A stretch of 18,917 bases of DNA, from UHGV virus genome UHGV-0096894. One strand, 5' to 3'. Below are positions 2,231-9,702 of this stretch, in pieces. Under the pieces are notes generated by a model. The model was given only the letters and a program-made list of their open reading frames with translations. It did no database searches and had not been told where the DNA came from. This DNA comes from a virus. Numbering within the stretch: the stretch's first letter is position 1; the number at the start of each line of letters is the position of its first letter. The position numbers were made by a program, and so were the translations under genes.

Positions 2231-2376
2231 AAAGCCCTGCAATAACAGGGCTTAGATTCGGAAAGCCTAGGAAACTTTCCTGTGTATGATGGAGATCCCC
2301 ACCGCTACACTTAGAATTGACAAAAGCGAGTTTAGCGGTTCTCTCAATAAATTGCAACCTGTATGGGGATACAGGT

Positions 2377-2547
2377 ATGCAGGGAGATGCTGTTGTTATG
2401 GCTATGAAAACTTGTAAGAAATGTGGGAAACCGTGTGAAATTATTTTTCGTTACTCTGCCTGTATCAACGGAGTTATGCGGTATGCGAGAAAAGGGCATC
2501 CTTTTCCGATTCCTGTCTGCGATTGCTCTGAACTTGGTGTCGCATAA
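2377..2547 (+). CDS. Small Cys-rich protein, zinc-ribbon-like (about 56 aa)
   Basis: ATG at 2377 with GGGGA 7 nt upstream. Product MQGDAVVMAMKTCKKCGKPCEIIFRYSACINGVMRYARKGHPFPIPVCDCSELGVA carries CxxC...CxC. The track ORF begins at a TTG (2317). Start and coding status are uncertain. Confidence 0.4.
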   Translation: MQGDAVVMAMKTCKKCGKPCEIIFRYSACINGVMRYARKGHPFPIPVCDCSELGVA

Positions 2548-2553
2548 TGATAG

Positions 2554-2576
2554 AACCCGCTTCGGCGGGTTTTTTG
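2554..2576 (+). terminator. Rho-independent terminator
   Basis: Stem acccgc(2555-2560)/gcgggt(2565-2570) with TTCG tetraloop, then a T-run. Shares the 15-nt core aacccgcttcggcgg with the terminator at 1216-1238. Confidence 0.6.
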
Positions 2577-2758
2577 TTGTTTATTTTTAGTGGGTTTGAT
2601 CTTTTTGATTGCGTCAGCACGGTTGCTTGTAAAGGCATCGCGGGTGTATTGAACAGATAATGGGTCAACATAGAATCAAAAATTCTTAAGTAGCGCGCAG
2701 GGAGAAGAGGGATGGACCCCAAACAGGGGAGTGCTATTTATCTGGAAGGATTCTGTTG

Positions 2759-3016
2759 ATGAAAATCGAAGAATTACGTGAAATTTTTAGTGAAGATGGC
2801 CTCTATACTGTGCGCGTTGAGAATGGCGCTATTGTCAGCCACTGCCGTATTAAATGTTTACAGTCTCAACAAAGGAAGAGTGGAGCTGCGTTAATTCATT
2901 TTGTGGATGGGCTTGTGACGGATGGTTTTATTTTGCGTGCAAATGAATTTGTCACATCGTTGCCGTCTCTGAAAGAAGCTGGGATTAAGGCTGGTTTTTC
3001 TGCTTTTGAAGATTAG
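2759..3016 (+). CDS. Hypothetical small protein (85 aa), possibly Rem-like
   Basis: GGAAGGA RBS 8 nt before ATG at 2759 (the track starts at the adjacent TTG 2756). Product MKIEELREIFSEDGLYTVRVENGAIVSHCRIK... has no motif I recognise. The Rem-like label is only by position relative to the hok and DUF968 genes, as in the Qin prophage. Confidence 0.5.
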   Translation: MKIEELREIFSEDGLYTVRVENGAIVSHCRIKCLQSQQRKSGAALIHFVDGLVTDGFILRANEFVTSLPSLKEAGIKAGFSAFED

Positions 3017-3085
3017 TGAATTCATCTACAATTCAGCGCAGGGCTGAACCCCTGTTGAGTAACACTGTGCCACCGGAGAAAGCCG

Positions 3086-3364
3086 ATGGCGCAAAATTCC
3101 AGACTACACAATTCTGATAATTCAGCCGTCTTTGTCAGCAGGCACGGGCGGCGTTCTCACACATTCAAATATGACTGGTACCAGCATGACCCCTGCACTG
3201 AAGAACAGGCCGAATGGCTGATTCAGAACTACCGCAGACGTGGGTATGTGTTTAGGAAAGCCCTCACCCTCGATTATCGTCTCTGGATAATCTCCGTCAG
3301 GCTCCCTTATTCCGAACGCCCGCCGCGTCCGTCCCGCACATTCCAGCAACGCATCTGGAGGTAA
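3086..3364 (+). CDS. Hypothetical protein (92 aa), basic and Arg-rich
   Basis: GGAGA RBS 7 nt upstream of ATG at 3086. Stop TAA at 3362-3364 lies 1 nt before the next gene start, suggesting translational coupling. Confidence 0.45.
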   Translation: MAQNSRLHNSDNSAVFVSRHGRRSHTFKYDWYQHDPCTEEQAEWLIQNYRRRGYVFRKALTLDYRLWIISVRLPYSERPPRPSRTFQQRIWR

Positions 3365-3365
3365 C

Positions 3366-4421
3366 GTGCGGGTATTGCTTCGACCTGTTCCTGTACCGGA
3401 ACTTGGGCTGGTGGTCCTTAAGCCTGGCCGTGAATCCATGCAGGTATTTCATAACCCTCGAGTGCTGGTAGAGCCGGAACCGAAAAGCATGCGCGGCCTG
3501 CCGTCCGGGATTGTTCCTGCCGTTCGCCAGCCACTGATGGAAGATAAATCATTACTGCCATTTTTCAGCGACGAACGGGTGATTCGCGCTGCCGGCGGTG
3601 CTGGTTCACTGTCTGACTGGCTCCTGCGTCATGTTAAATCCTGCCAGTGGCCTCATGGTGACTATCATCACAGTGAAATCGTCATACATCGTTACTGTAC
3701 CGGCGCGATGGTGTTGTGCTGGCACTGCGACAACCAGCTGCGTGACCAGACATCAGAATCACTTGAACAACTTGCTCATCAAAACCTGGCAGCATGGATG
3801 ATTGACGTCATCCGTCACGCAATGAATGGCACGCAGGAGCGGGAATTATCGCTGGCTGAATTGTACTGCTGGGCTGCTGTAAATGATGTAGTGGATGCCA
3901 TGACCGAAAATATGGCGCGTCGAATCCTGAAGCTTCCGGGTGAAAAAATCTGCTCAGTATACCGCGAGAGCGACATCATACCGGGAGAGCAGACAGCCAT
4001 CAGCATACTGAAGCAGCGCACAAAAAATCTTGCGCCGCTGCCTCACGCCCACCAGCAAAACCCGCCACAGGAAAAGACGGTGGTCAGCATTGCCGTTGAT
4101 CCGGAGTCACCGGCTCAGTATCTCCAGCGCCAGAAACCACAACGGGAAGATATGCCTGTATACACGCGCTGGGTAAAAACGCAGAAATGCATGACGTGCG
4201 GTAATCAGGCAGATGATCCGCATCACATCATTGGTCATGGGCTGGGAGGGATGGGAACAAAGGCTGATGATTTGTTTGTTATTCCGCTGTGCCGTAAATG
4301 TCATAACGAACTGCACGCCGGGGTAAAAGATTTTGAAGAAAAACACGGCAGCCAGCTGTTGTTGCTGATTCGTTTTTTAATGCACGCGAGAAATTCGGGT
4401 GTCCTGAAGTGGAAAGCATGA
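3366..4421 (+). CDS. DUF968-like lambdoid prophage protein with Cys/His-rich (HNH-like) C-terminal region
   Basis: GTG start at 3366 with GGAGG 5 nt upstream. The C-terminus CMTCGNQADDPHHIIGHGLGGMGTKADDLFVIPLCRKCHNELH has the paired Cys plus His pattern I associate with the DUF968/YdfU family of nin-region proteins. Stop abuts the rusA start. Confidence 0.65.
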   Translation: MRVLLRPVPVPELGLVVLKPGRESMQVFHNPRVLVEPEPKSMRGLPSGIVPAVRQPLMEDKSLLPFFSDERVIRAAGGAGSLSDWLLRHVKSCQWPHGDYHHSEIVIHRYCTGAMVLCWHCDNQLRDQTSESLEQLAHQNLAAWMIDVIRHAMNGTQERELSLAELYCWAAVNDVVDAMTENMARRILKLPGEKICSVYRESDIIPGEQTAISILKQRTKNLAPLPHAHQQNPPQEKTVVSIAVDPESPAQYLQRQKPQREDMPVYTRWVKTQKCMTCGNQADDPHHIIGHGLGGMGTKADDLFVIPLCRKCHNELHAGVKDFEEKHGSQLLLLIRFLMHARNSGVLKWKA

Positions 4422-4799
4422 ATGACTGAACGCATAGAATTTGTTTTGCCTTACCCGCCGACGGTGAATACTTACTGGCGACGTCATGGCAATACGTATT
4501 TCATCTCGGAGGCCGGAAAGCGTTATCGCCGTGATGTGGCGCTAATTGTTCGCCAGCAGCGGCTGAAATTAAACCTGTCCGGAAGGCTGGCGATAAAGAT
4601 TATTGCAGAGCCACCGGATAAGCGCCGTCGTGACCTGGACAATATCCTGAAAGCACCACTGGATGCGCTGACGCATGCCGGACTTCTCATAGACGACGAT
4701 CAGTTTGATGAAATCAATATTGTGCGTGGTCTGCCTGTTTGCGGTGGGCGACTGGGTGTGAATATATTCGTAATAAGAGGATGTAATGATGTTGCGTGA
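4422..4799 (+). CDS. rusA: RusA-family Holliday junction resolvase
   Basis: Product [40 protein letters not shown]...[30 protein letters not shown]...GGRLGVNIF carries the RusA landmarks (PP..N.Y, RRRDLDN, DALT.AG, DD.Q, GGRL). ATG immediately follows the upstream stop. Confidence 0.85.
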
Positions 4800-5160
4800 T
4801 ATTCAGCTGGTTATGGAGCGGTGGGGAGCATGGGCAGCAAATAATCATGAAGATGTAACATGGCCCTCGATAGCTGCTGGTTTTAAAGGATTAATCCCGG
4901 CTAAAGTGAAATCACGTCCTCAGTGTTCTGATGATGACGCCATGATAATTTGTGGCTGTATGGCACGATTAAACAAGAATAATCAGTATTTGCACGATTT
5001 GTTGGTGGATTATTACGTAGGTGGAATGACATTTATGGCTCTTGCACGTAAGCATAGATGTTCTGATGGGCTTATTGGTAAAAGACTTTATAAAGCGGAA
5101 GGTATTATTGAAGGAATGCTTATGGCTCTGAATGTCAGGTTAGATATGGATATGCGGTAG
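4786..5160 (+). CDS. Late-gene antiterminator Q (Q21/QuuD-like family)
   Basis: Product [36 protein letters not shown]...[14 protein letters not shown]... matches my recollection of the small phage-21/DLP12 QuuD-type Q proteins. AGAGGA RBS upstream. The position (after rusA, before late genes) fits. Confidence 0.65.
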
Positions 5161-5279: not shown

Positions 5280-5310
5280 CAATATTCATCATTAAATGAA
5301 AGGAGTGTTT

Positions 5311-6129
5311 ATGTGGATTGTGTTAGCACTGTCACTGTCAACTCTCAGTTGGCATAAGGTAGTGGCTTTTTCATTGTTGACGGTGTCTGCTGTCCTGGCT
5401 GTACTTAATGATATTATTGATTGGCCGGTGTTGTTTTTTGTTGCTACAATCGTCTTTTTTATTATTTTGAAGTTCAACTGGAAATATAACGCTTGGGCTA
5501 AATCCATATATGAAGCTGGCATAGTTTTATCAGCCATAGCATTATCTTTCCATTTATGGCCAGGGTTTCACAATCCTGTAGTGCTAAAGTCTGTTACTGT
5601 CGGACCTCAAAGCACTCCCTATACAATGTATTTTAATTTTGATAAAGCGCTGGTGCCATTTTTGTTAGTCCTGTGTACAGCTTCTTTGTTTAAAAAAGAA
5701 GTGAAATCAGAAGTGTCTTTGTGGAAATGGGGGGCTCTGTTGCTCTCTGTTCCTCTTATCCTGTTTTTGGCTGTTTTTTTTGGTGGGTTAAAGCCAGAGA
5801 TTCATTTTCCTGAGTGGTTGCCAGAGTTTATATTGGCTAATTTGTTTTTTGTGTCTCTGGCAGAGGAATCATTATTTAGAGGGTATATTCAATCACGGCT
5901 ATCAGAAGTAACGTCTCCATTGATTGCGTTAATTGTGGCGTCTTTGTTGTTTGGTCTTTTTCACTATTCAGGTGGTGCTTTACTTGTATTATTTGCCACG
6001 TTATCTGGTGTTGTGTATGGATTGTCATGGATGTGGAGTGGGCGCTTGTGGGTGGCAACCCTTTTCCATTTTGGTCTGAATCTGTGTCACTTGTTATTCT
6101 TTACCTATCCATTCTTAAAACATAATTGA
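5311..6129 (+). CDS. CPBP-family (Abi/CAAX-protease-like) intramembrane metalloprotease
   Basis: AAGGAG RBS 6 nt before ATG at 5311 (the track starts at 5296). Polytopic hydrophobic protein with all three CPBP motifs: EESLFR (EExxxR), FGLFH (FxxxH) and HFGLN (HxxxN). Confidence 0.8.
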   Translation: MWIVLALSLSTLSWHKVVAFSLLTVSAVLAVLNDIIDWPVLFFVATIVFFIILKFNWKYNAWAKSIYEAGIVLSAIALSFHLWPGFHNPVVLKSVTVGPQSTPYTMYFNFDKALVPFLLVLCTASLFKKEVKSEVSLWKWGALLLSVPLILFLAVFFGGLKPEIHFPEWLPEFILANLFFVSLAEESLFRGYIQSRLSEVTSPLIALIVASLLFGLFHYSGGALLVLFATLSGVVYGLSWMWSGRLWVATLFHFGLNLCHLLFFTYPFLKHN

Positions 6130-7811: not shown

Positions 7812-7977
7812 CTTTTTTTTGCGAACTTTTTAATTTTTATAATATTGTATAATTATGTTTTAAATACCTGACATTGTTTGTATTGAAACAGGAGCGGAAT
7901 TCATTATTATTCTTCGTCGGTTCCAAGGGAGGGTAATTTATGTATCCGGGCATCTCATCCACACCTGAGGAACCAAT

Positions 7978-8053
<76 letters not shown>

Positions 8054-8056
8054 TAT

Positions 8057-8131
<75 letters not shown>

Positions 8132-8485
8132 TCATTATTCTGGCAACACGAATTATACAGCACTGGCGTGTTTTTTACGTGGGGGCAGGTTGTTTTAAGA
8201 CATCTTTGGTCCTCAGGCTATGGTTTGAGGTCGGTTATAGCCTCAGTGCTGATTTTTTACAACAATGGAATGGTGCATTATCGGTGGAGATTTCGTATTT
8301 CCTGGCAGGGCTGATGATGCACTATCCCGGTGTTGTAAAAACACTACAGAGGTGTTCCTCAGTGCGAGGGTGGTTTAAAGAGTCGGTTTAGCGGGAAACC
8401 ACAGTATCCTTGTGGGGCTGGATGCTTCGGGTGGCACCCGACACTTCTGAATACAATTAAATCATGCGTTTTTATATGCCATTAA

Positions 8486-8509
8486 CCGCCGCTCCAGGCG
8501 GTTTTTTTT
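8486..8509 (+). terminator. Rho-independent terminator
   Basis: Stem ccgcc(8486-8490)/ggcgg(8497-8501), loop gctcca, followed by an 8-T run (8502-8509). Confidence 0.55.
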
Positions 8510-9129
8510 ATTCAAAGTTTGGGGTTACAAGTGCTCGCTTCCACTACTTTGGTTTTTACAATTATAGTTTTTGGGAGAATCTTCATGGGGTGTGCTTCAT
8601 CCTTTGCAATTCGCTGCTCCTGGTGTATGAGACAATGAAGTCCATGCGGTAACGAAGGTCGGATATCTGCTCGGTTTTATTCTGGTAATTTGGGGCCTTC
8701 GCTTTTTACGGATGCGGGCAGCACAAGGTTATTGGGGCGACGGCCATCATTGTTGCATTTGCAGGAGTTATTCTGAGTCCGACAAGAATGTGCTGTTGAG
8801 TGCACTGCTGGCTGAAAGAAACTGCCACCTGAAGAATGGTGAACTTATTTAGTAGGGGATCCTGGATGAAAGTGAACGGGATGATAACTTCGAAATTAGT
8901 CCACTGAGGAATGCCTTATACAAGAGATCATGGATAACCCTCGGACATTTACAGGAAGCAAACGCCACTTACTTCACTACCCCGGAGAAGTGGGGCCTGC
9001 CAATATGACAGATAACAAAATCTGAAAATGAGTCTCTCCAGTTGAGAAATATACGATGAAGGAGCATTCTGTTCAGCGCAAAGTAATCCGTTTTGTGATG
9101 AATAATCTCGAGAGTCATTTTTCATTCCT

Positions 9130-9158
9130 GCCAGCCTCCCCAGAGCTGGCTTTTTTTT
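9130..9158 (+). terminator. Rho-independent terminator
   Basis: Stem gccagc(9130-9135)/gctggc(9145-9150), 9-nt loop, followed by an 8-T run (9151-9158). Confidence 0.55.
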
Positions 9159-9221
9159 AAGGCCTGTTCCGACGGGCTTTTTTGTATTCGCTCCACGTCC
9201 CATACATATCAAATCTGAATA

Positions 9222-9268
9222 ACACCACACAAAGGCATCTGCGGATGTCTTTGGTGTGGTGTTTTTTT
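9222..9268 (+). terminator. Strong rho-independent terminator immediately upstream of the lysis cassette
   Basis: Long imperfect hairpin ACACCACACAAAG (9222-9234) / CTTTGGTGTGGTGT (9249-9262) with one bulge and a 14-nt loop holding a catc/gatg mini-stem, followed by a 7-T run. A second T-run at 9285-9290 precedes the holin RBS. Confidence 0.6.
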
Positions 9269-9309
9269 GGGTCCGCTGGTGGCCTTTTTTAATTTACAGG
9301 AGAAAAAGT

Positions 9310-9702
9310 ATGTCTGAACCCTTATCCGGTTCCGGCACCGCTGCTGCGCTCGGTGGGGCGACTGTTTTCGGGCTGTTTACCGGAACGGATTTCGGGATTG
9401 TGTTTGGCGCATTTGCGGGGGCGTTGTTTGTTGCAACGATACCGCAGGCGCTTTCAGCATGGCGGGTGGCGGCACATTTTCTTGTGTCATTTATCGTCGG
9501 CGTGCTGGGTGCGCGTTTGCTTTCAGCCTGGGTGGCATCAAAAACTGGTTATGACGGCACATCTGCAGATGCATTGTGTGCGGTGCTGGTATCGCTGGTG
9601 TCGGTAAAGATTATGTCATTCATCCACCAGCAGGATATCGCATCACTGGTGTCTGGCCTGTTCTCGCGCCTGCGGGGCGGAGGAGGCGGCAATGTTAAGT
9701 AA
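9310..9702 (+). CDS. Putative holin (130 aa, 3-4 predicted transmembrane segments)
   Basis: AGGAG RBS 7 nt before ATG at 9310; the track's 9256 start runs through the terminator T-tract and is unlikely. Gly/Ala-rich hydrophobic segments, short charged C-terminus. Sits first in a block that ends with endolysin and spanins. No similarity to lambda S that I can see. Confidence 0.6.
   Translation: MSEPLSGSGTAAALGGATVFGLFTGTDFGIVFGAFAGALFVATIPQALSAWRVAAHFLVSFIVGVLGARLLSAWVASKTGYDGTSADALCAVLVSLVSVKIMSFIHQQDIASLVSGLFSRLRGGGGGNVK

Follow-up and report, generated by a model that had tools for sequence, protein, structure and literature searches.

The stretch of DNA analysed here (18,917 nucleotides (nt) of the virus genome UHGV-0096894, hereafter the window) is the late region of a lambdoid Escherichia coli prophage. 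Between its transfer RNA (tRNA) gene tRNA-Gly(UCC) (8057–8131, + strand) and its holin gene (9310–9702, + strand; phrog_198, E = 5e-41) lies a spacer, 8132–9309, which is a mosaic. A structured RNA of three domains (D1, D2 and D3, together 8158–8509) is followed by a dead cargo gene with its own terminators (T1 and T2) and then by the terminators that precede the holin (T3 and T4). The third domain, D3, is a candidate small RNA (sRNA) of the STnc100 family. The spacer is poor in open reading frames (ORFs), as an earlier reading made without database searches (the sequence-only reading) had stated: those of at least 60 amino acids (aa) overlap tRNA-Gly (8071–8391, 106 aa, and 8099–8314), run through a terminator (8464–8652) or sit on the minus strand (8949–9230), and no conserved ORF was found.

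The whole spacer, at 98% identity, is present in only six of 5426 complete E. coli genomes, including the enterotoxigenic strain E24377A, and the annotation by the Prokaryotic Genome Annotation Pipeline (PGAP) is empty here in all six. The segment 8160–8513 was found at 70–87% identity in 428 of the 5426 genomes (∼8%), and its 3′ two-thirds in ∼160 plasmids, mostly conjugative. Phage SerU-LTIIb and many prophages align to 7978–8522 and again to 9152–9320, without 8523–9151. The gap from the end of the D3 terminator (8509) to T3 falls into three classes, of 73–84, 264–276 and 694–766 bp; in the longest class the cargo depends on the phage: a TerB-family gene of 141 aa accompanied by DUF3927, an ORF of 126 aa, a gene of phrog_6315, or no intact gene at all.

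The structured RNA was examined across a set of 55 homologues drawn from E. coli genomes, plasmids and IMG/VR contigs, in all of which (55/55) tRNA-Gly lies directly upstream. A MAFFT alignment of 51 sequences gave an RNAalifold consensus of 58 pairs, and counts were made on its 48 distinct rows. Of the paired cells, 98% can pair, and compensatory changes were seen at 17 pairs and in 110 cells, compared with shuffle means of 12.2 pairs and 41 cells; the observed counts were reached by 1 of 500 shuffles for pairs and by none of 500 for cells, although these shuffles ignore phylogeny. When the partners were slid by one to three columns as a control, only 0–6 compensatory pairs were left and pairing collapsed to 35–60%. 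Moreover, the alignment holds 347 G·U cells and only 25 A·C cells, an asymmetry that identifies the structure as one of + strand RNA, rather than of DNA or of the other strand. The minus strand also folds much less well than the + strand. The element persists in settings that differ in Q gene, holin and cargo, as well as on plasmids.

Several other identities were considered for the element. An Rfam scan for AgvB, AsxR, Esr41, IsrK, C4, GOLLD, ROOL and others gave no match at E ≤ 1, and matches of the D2 hairpin to microRNA models of Rfam were dismissed as chance. A single-stranded DNA promoter of the conjugative-plasmid leading region (Frpo/ssi), considered for the plasmid copies and the long hairpin, was rejected because those copies have cargo genes and insertion sequence (IS) elements around them and are not beside ssb, psiB or ardA, and because the G·U asymmetry indicates RNA. 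The sRNA beside a pseudo-tRNA-Gly in prophage PP10 of E2348/69 (E2348C_2757.EST5UTR) is not homologous, and a contig scan with a core motif of 16 specified bases returned only chance matches in unrelated G+C-rich genomes.

The plasmid copies (∼160 in all, mostly on conjugative IncF plasmids; loci L003, L004 and L005 among those fetched) comprise D2, D3 and the terminator at 70–77% identity. On one of them (L004, NZ_OU342920.1, 4816–5290) an intact tRNA, called Lys-UUU by ARAGORN, lies 112 nt upstream of the element, and a gene for a transporter of the drug/metabolite transporter (DMT) family begins 22 nt past the terminator. Elsewhere on plasmids its neighbours are IS elements and virulence-type cargo.

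D1 (8158–8258, + strand) folds as a four-way junction (z = −4.5). Its closing stem of 8 bp pairs CAGCACUG (8158–8165) with CAGUGCUG (8244–8251), three hairpins lie inside, and an A and U6 (8253–8258) follow. The U6 had been read from the sequence as the tail of a weak terminator at 8212–8258; the tract is there, but the stem in front of it is the closing stem of the junction. Folding z-scores of −2.1 to −5.4 were obtained for four diverged homologues. D1 occurs in five sequence groups whose hairpins are unrelated in sequence and form the same four-way junction, one group lacking one hairpin. A covariance model built from one D1 group (R2) recovered 78 copies, the diverged groups included. Compensatory changes were seen at 27 of 39 D1 pairs, with a shuffle mean of 13.2 (none of 500 reaching the observed value) and 8–12 in the slid controls, and 92% of cells were paired, counts that are inflated by the alignment having been fitted to the model.

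Three D1-like copies have no tRNA directly upstream (L006 2438–2542, L023 2066–2167 and L005 5803–5893; R2, 27–43 bits), which favours a role as a terminator or transcript end, and D1 is probably a (leaky) terminator or the 3′ trailer of the tRNA operon. Two of these three copies lie between a methyltransferase gene and a tRNA promoter. D1 itself is not a further tRNA, since ARAGORN and the Rfam tRNA models gave no match over 8158–8258 at E ≤ 1 and only two tRNAs were found.

D2 (8254–8341, + strand) is an imperfect hairpin of ∼36 bp (z = −7.4) whose 5′ arm starts within the D1 U-tract. Its folding energy is −41.9 kcal/mol on the + strand and −26.1 kcal/mol on the minus strand. Compensatory changes were found in 9 of its 22 pairs (helix 2 of A2; for example GC 28 / AU 18 and UA 40 / CG 6), with 97.8% of cells paired and many G·U pairs. 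The 3′ arm holds an invariant TGTTGTAAA, and its TGTTGTAAAAAC aligns with the −10 region of canonical STnc100 promoters.

D3 comprises a structured core (8347–8449, + strand), supported by the full-length Rfam STnc100 match, our own covariance model and covariation; an A/U-rich single-stranded linker (8450–8483, + strand), seen in the conservation profile; and an intrinsic terminator (8484–8509, + strand), AACCGCC...GGCGGUU followed by U8, located by pattern scan. The outer helix of the core pairs CAGAGGUGU with ACACUUCUG, and the hairpins CCUC-AGUGC-GAGG and CGGG-UGGCA-CCCG are nearly invariant. Covarying pairs include 249–345 (UA 28, CG 20) and 300–326 (GC 26, AU 14), and the terminator stem is invariant across the 48 distinct homologues. 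A local dyad, GGGTGgCACCC, had been noticed in the sequence-only reading; it is real, but lies at 8428–8440 (CGGGTGGCACCCG), two bases away from the coordinates then given, and is a hairpin that the STnc100 family keeps nearly invariant (CGGG-AGGCA-CCCG).

The Rfam STnc100 model (RF02076) matches D3 over its full length (model positions 1–206) at 20.6 bits, E = 0.014 in a search of 291 nt, a score below the Rfam gathering threshold of 47 bits. The alignment returned by cmscan shows the outer helix, CCUC-AGUGC-GAGG, CGGG-(A/U)GGCA-CCCG and the terminator. The family's signature plan (outer helix; CCYC-GUGCG-GRGG; CGGGAGGCACCCG) is found in the element, invariant or covarying in the 48 homologues. 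For the reciprocal search, a model (R1) was built from 22 representatives of the element and searched in 341 kb, and canonical STnc100 loci were fetched via a published STnc100 primer sequence. R1 matched these loci over their full length at 35–37 bits (E of 2e-6 to 5e-6), falling exactly on their CATGGTGAATCCCCC motif (CATGGTGAATCCCCCTGTGC). By blastn, D3 and canonical STnc100 show no similarity. PasD2 scores 41.4 bits on the Rfam STnc100 model, also below the gathering threshold; hence, given the reciprocal matches, D3 is regarded as a diverged member of the STnc100 superfamily. PasA, PasB, PasC and PasD were each tried as closer homologues and set aside, as blastn aligned only generic terminator ends and R1 gave no PasD match.

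D3 sits within the late region of this lambdoid prophage, after Q and before the lysis cassette. STnc100 overlaps the Hfq-binding sRNA EcOnc27/sRNA103 (PMC12711010), whose overexpression raises fimZ and espA transcripts (PMC12711010), and in Stx2 phages it lies 75 nt downstream of stx2B (PMC12370729), so that the analogy drawn in the sequence-only reading with the toxin position of Stx phages was apt. PasD1 and PasD2 of enteropathogenic E. coli (EPEC), of 172–173 nt, are abundant Hfq-dependent sRNAs with many partners in RIL-seq (a ligation-and-sequencing method for RNA–RNA contacts) (PMC8550237, table S6). A common ancestry of PasD with STnc100 has been proposed, all of them having Q on one side and the holin/lysozyme operon on the other (bioRxiv 10.64898/2026.05.13.724894). 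The PasD seed is at a position equivalent to the D3 linker (PMC8550237, supplement), and by analogy with PasD and STnc100 the linker is presumed to be the Hfq-binding and seed region. Canonical STnc100 copies carry the promoter TTGTCT-18-TGTTAAAAG just upstream. In the window the TGTTGTAAAAAC at the STnc100 −10 position is inside the 3′ arm of D2, and is not accompanied by an acceptable −35.

D3 is not always kept whole. At L009 (E. coli 13P484A, 3190–3270) and in many genomes (query coverage 27–208), D1 and D2 are kept and the D3 core is swapped; the L009 replacement is an A/U-rich body of ∼60 nt, giving a unit of ∼75 nt that ends in the same CCGCC...GGCGG-U8 terminator. A ‘mini’ D3 at L092 (2093–2167), likewise with D1 and D2 retained, keeps the outer helix, linker and terminator, with the core down to 6 nt, and an intact gene of the phrog_6315 family comes next. 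Together these variants suggest a cassette, in which a fixed 5′ control element and a fixed 3′ terminator flank an exchangeable body. The L009 unit shows a weak CyaR-like match (E = 0.08), and PGAP places a ‘hypothetical protein’ across D2 there. On the minus strand of L099 (IMGVR_UViG_2861053794_000003, ∼2270–3950), five STnc100-like copies (R1, 18–33 bits) and a D1/D2-like match all fall within ∼1.7 kb, in what looks like an array of related sRNA genes.

The middle of the spacer (∼8520–9025, + strand) is a decayed cargo gene, a relative of the phrog_6315 family recognized by tblastn, blastn and translation. In strain 2015C-4136CT1 (L092) the same tRNAs and terminator are followed by an intact hypothetical gene of 164 aa (WP_021560133.1), which has a phrog_6315 match (E = 2.4e-27) and falls in no Pfam family. 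The window aligns with this protein by tblastn at 56% over 43 aa (8862–8990, 48.5 bits) and, in a second alignment, at 31% over 128 aa (8655–8996), and with the L092 gene by blastn at 74% DNA identity. The frame of the remnant is interrupted by TAG-TAG at 8850–8855, by further stops upstream and by a frameshift before the retained C-terminal ...DNKI-stop (9011–9025). In L040, a 90% identical relative, the stops are at different places, and the substitutions between the two by codon position 1/2/3 (5/3/2 and 1/4/2) show no third-position excess. With its stops removed, the translated remnant gave no match to the phrog_6315 hidden Markov model (HMM) or to PHROG at E ≤ 0.1, so the pseudogene assignment rests on the pairwise match and synteny; the remnant is either too diverged or short for the HMM, or only distantly related.

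T1 (9130–9158, + strand; GCCAGC...GCUGGC followed by U8) and T2 (9159–9185, + strand; also in the pattern scan) are kept in L040, L092 and L093. They follow the intact gene in L092, and all four homologues retain them. A small hairpin, CUGAAAAU...GUUUUCAG, over the stop codon of the cargo gene (window 9017–9041) is likewise kept in L040, L092 and L093; it is degraded in the window, and the 90 nt that separate it from T1 vary. This hairpin could be an sRNA derived from the 3′ untranslated region of the cargo gene. A 34-aa ORF at 9056–9160 had been put forward as a possibility. It exists in the window; however, its ATG and its frame, which is broken by an indel, are absent from all three homologous loci (L040, L092 and L093). 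Neither its product nor those of the other small ORFs matched PHROG, and the 34-aa ORF is not a gene.

Other prophages carry different cargo at this position. The 141-aa (TerB-family) and 126-aa ORFs of other loci, considered as relatives of the window insert, are not homologous to it. In L337 (NZ_CP096902.1, 1939–2601), L014, L015, L022 and others, the slot before T3/T4 holds the 141-aa TerB-family and DUF3927 genes, and in L039, L048 and L056 the TerB gene is broken into ORFs of 65 and 72 aa, a second case of cargo decay in the pre-holin slot.

The spacer closes with two terminators, T3 (9222–9268, + strand; a stem of ∼18 bp followed by U7, z = −7.7) and T4 (9269–9290, + strand), which ends 8 nt before the holin ribosome-binding site, AGGAGA (9297–9302). 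The pair lies upstream of lysis genes in 73 fetched loci and in 527 of the 5426 E. coli genomes (∼10%), independently of the holin family (phrog_198 type or essD-like), and in another prophage the TerB/DUF3927 cargo comes immediately before it. T4 (GGGCCGCTGGTGGCCC-T6) is near-invariant in relatives; in T3 the upper stem is conserved and the lower stem variable. Across the spacer, the pattern scan found 6 terminator-like sites, compared with 1.3 ± 1.3 in dinucleotide shuffles, and missed 9130–9158 and 9222–9268 because of its own loop and stem limits. At six predicted sites on the + strand a G+C-rich stem-loop is directly followed by a U-tract, as in an intrinsic terminator. The four hairpin-plus-T-tract sites named in the sequence-only reading are thus all present, and two further ones (9159–9185 and 9269–9290) join them.

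That reading had offered three accounts of the whole spacer, and each turns out to describe a separate segment, none the whole. Small structured RNAs ending at terminators fit 8158–8509, where three domains covary and the last is homologous to STnc100. A decayed moron fits ∼8520–9185, a phrog_6315-like remnant with in-frame stops, a frameshift and its own terminators. Insulators antiterminated by Q are a reasonable, if conjectural, reading of the tandem terminators at 9222–9290, which are kept upstream of several holin families. The objection that the region is simply pseudogene fragments applies to the middle third alone and not to the structured RNA.

In the wider late region, the gene order begins with a DUF968/HNH gene (3366–4421), RusA (4422–4799) and a Q-like antiterminator (4786–5160), followed by three cargo ORFs, including an Rce1-like protease and a DNA methyltransferase. 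Next come tRNA-Thr(UGU) (7978–8053, + strand) and tRNA-Gly, both found by ARAGORN and by the Rfam tRNA model (69.8 and 60.3 bits for the two). Beyond the spacer, the lysis cassette runs from 9310 with the holin, a second holin, endolysin and Rz. A sigma-70-like promoter of the tRNA operon, TTGAAA-16-TATTAT (7883–7910, + strand; score 10/12), lies outside the spacer and is the likely source of transcription into it; other loci have equivalent TTGAAA/TTGCGA...TATTAT/TATCAT sites at this place upstream of tRNA-Thr. Between this promoter and tRNA-Thr (window 7911–7977) is a hairpin leader, GGTTCYRAGG...CYYGARGAACC, with equivalents in many loci (L001, L002, L007, L011 and others) despite divergent loop sequence. 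The ORF directly 3′ of Q (5296–6129) falls in PF02517, the family of Rce1-like CAAX proteases (E = 5e-20; phrog_13291). E24377A has a Ser/Thr kinase and a PP2C phosphatase at the corresponding place instead, which marks a second variable cargo slot 3′ of Q.

We consider it likely that the spacer is a four-module mosaic in which D3 is an STnc100-family sRNA, the cargo gene is a dead moron and the terminators shield the lysis genes. Starting from the observed structures, conservation, covariation, strand, homologies and gene decay, we infer transcription start sites, processing, Hfq binding, targets and Q-dependent read-through as follows. In the lysogen, the constitutive tRNA promoter, and possibly an sRNA promoter, would fire upstream of the lysis genes. 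D3 might be produced by either of two routes, both being possible because D2 offers no acceptable promoter and a good conserved one lies upstream of tRNA-Thr: from a weak promoter embedded in the D2 3′ arm, at the position homologous to the STnc100 −10, or by cutting at the D2 duplex, which has the look of an RNase III substrate, in read-through transcripts of tRNA-operon or late origin. D3 would then most likely be a trans-acting, Hfq-dependent sRNA that base-pairs by means of its A/U-rich linker. The successive terminators (D1, the D3 terminator, T1/T2 and T3/T4) would confine lysogen transcription to the tRNAs and small RNAs and so prevent expression of holin and endolysin. Once the prophage is induced, RNA polymerase modified by Q would arrive from upstream and read through all of them.

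A number of observations weigh against this account. Apart from the sub-threshold Rfam score of D3, R1 did not match the two PasD loci (L090 and L091) at E ≤ 1, the D3 core alone folds no better than shuffles (z = −1.4), and a sigma-70 consensus scan found no promoter before D3. The linker is the least conserved part of D3 and the core loops are invariant, which is odd for a pure base-pairing sRNA. The limits noted above on the shuffles and on the D1 alignment count on the same side, as does the HMM miss of the cargo remnant. Furthermore, the window's T4 stem is weaker than in relatives, and D1 is far more elaborate than a terminator role needs, a poor fit to the proposed mechanism.

A different emphasis, which we hold to be rather unlikely, is that the tRNA-linked D1–D2(–D3) unit is an undescribed mobile phage RNA module with a function beyond termination or Hfq-sRNA action. 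The four-way junction and the 36-bp duplex would then work with the tRNAs as one processed transcript, or launch interchangeable sRNA bodies, and the module would have spread to ∼8% of E. coli genomes and ∼160 conjugative plasmids.

It is unlikely that D1, D2 and D3 form one phage RNA of ∼350 nt, the 3′ trailer of the tRNA operon, whose whole fold is functional (for example in protein binding, tRNA-related chemistry or defence and counter-defence), following a GOLLD/ROOL-like logic rather than that of an Hfq sRNA with accessory hairpins. The three covarying domains are contiguous behind tRNA-Gly in 217 genomes, D3 has no good promoter in front, the structured loops are invariant and the supposed seed variable, and the whole of 8132–8515 folds at z = −5.7. 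However, the modules separate freely, which argues against a single RNA: D1 and D2 occur without the D3 core in L009 and many genomes, D2 and D3 without D1 (plasmids, H104-106), and D1-like copies alone. Moreover, D1 closes with a terminator-like stem and U6, D3 is homologous to a free-standing sRNA of ∼170–200 nt, and Rfam gives no GOLLD or ROOL match.

We regard as quite improbable a cis-acting leader, attenuator- or riboswitch-like, in which the terminator at 8484–8509 controls the following cargo or lysis gene. The arrangement invites the idea, with a structured domain and then a terminator directly upstream of genes (the transporter gene of L004 begins 22 nt on) and, in phages, a cargo slot that starts right after the terminator. 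Yet the 35–50 nt between core and terminator vary in sequence and length, no conserved anti-terminator pairing was seen there, and the terminator stem is invariant and strong. Many loci have only 73–84 bp of terminators after the element. The homology of D3 to free-standing sRNAs argues further against an attenuator, since STnc100/EcOnc27 and PasD accumulate as Hfq-bound sRNAs (PMC8550237, PMC12711010).

That the whole spacer is decaying junk, conserved through recent common descent and hitch-hiking with the tRNAs, appears very improbable. The middle third is demonstrably a dead gene, the full 1.2-kb arrangement is rare (six genomes), and related sequences can beat shuffles without structure, a caveat of the tool. 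Strong covariation argues against it, as pairing is kept by compensatory changes at only 69–80% identity, D1 keeps its topology across hairpins of unrelated sequence, and the G·U to A·C asymmetry is strong and pairing falls to 35–60% with slid partners. The module is moreover retained on plasmids and where Q gene, holin and cargo differ. A protein-coding element (the 106-aa ORF, the small PGAP ORFs over D1/D2 or a 34-aa micro-protein) is scarcely credible: ORFs exist in the window, and several genomes and one phage carry ‘hypothetical protein’ annotations where partial matches fall, but the 106-aa ORF begins inside tRNA-Gly, homologues differ by indels of 1–2 nt with paired, RNA-type substitutions, and the 34-aa frame fails in its three homologous loci and in PHROG.

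The mosaic reading can be set beside known systems. STnc100 (RF02076) is EcOnc27/sRNA103 of E. coli O157:H7, and PasD1/PasD2 (EcOnc13) of EPEC are related. Like these, the element occupies the slot between Q and holin of lambdoid prophages; with STnc100 it shares an outer helix around CCYC-nGUGCG-GRGG and CGGG-AGGCA-CCCG, an A/U-rich linker, a terminator with a long U tail and reciprocal covariance-model matches. In contrast to STnc100, its central hairpins and linker differ, its Rfam score is below threshold, blastn similarity is lacking and the TTGTCT-18-TGTTAAAAG promoter is not intact; unlike STnc100 and PasD, it is fused behind tRNA-Gly with the extra covarying D1 and D2.

D1 resembles 3′ETS-leuZ of the glyW-cysT-leuZ operon in starting ∼26 nt after the last tRNA and ending at the first terminator-like stem and U-tract, a placement from which it would be released by tRNA 3′ processing. 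However, D1 has no sequence similarity to 3′ETS-leuZ, is a 100-nt four-way junction rather than a short single hairpin, and has D1-like copies without a tRNA in front. As in phage morons and Q-dependent late operons, a variable cargo slot bounded by terminators lies upstream of the lysis genes; unlike usual morons, the window cargo is dead and the terminators are tandem, a module conserved across holin families, with read-through putative. The likeness to GOLLD and ROOL, as structured non-coding RNAs beside tRNA genes in prophages, is one of genomic setting only. The element has no Rfam match to them, is much smaller, has modules that recombine apart and is found in Enterobacteria, not in Firmicutes and others.

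The elements of the spacer are thus mostly of known kinds, and what is new is an STnc100 relative missed by Rfam, joined to two covarying domains behind tRNAs. The slot between Q and holin houses Shiga toxin, other virulence cargo and Hfq-binding sRNAs (STnc100/EcOnc27, PasA–D, AgvB and AsxR), and automatic annotation leaves it blank. As a worked example, an ORF-poor spacer turns out to consist of structured RNA, a dead moron and probable insulators. In the proposed mechanism, the tandem terminators would allow constitutive tRNA and sRNA promoters to stand upstream of lysis genes without death of the lysogen. The suggested cassette pattern, in which the 5′ hairpin and the terminator are fixed and the body can be exchanged, is testable. 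Furthermore, a diverged STnc100 relative below the Rfam threshold, present in hundreds of E. coli genomes and in plasmids, widens the family.

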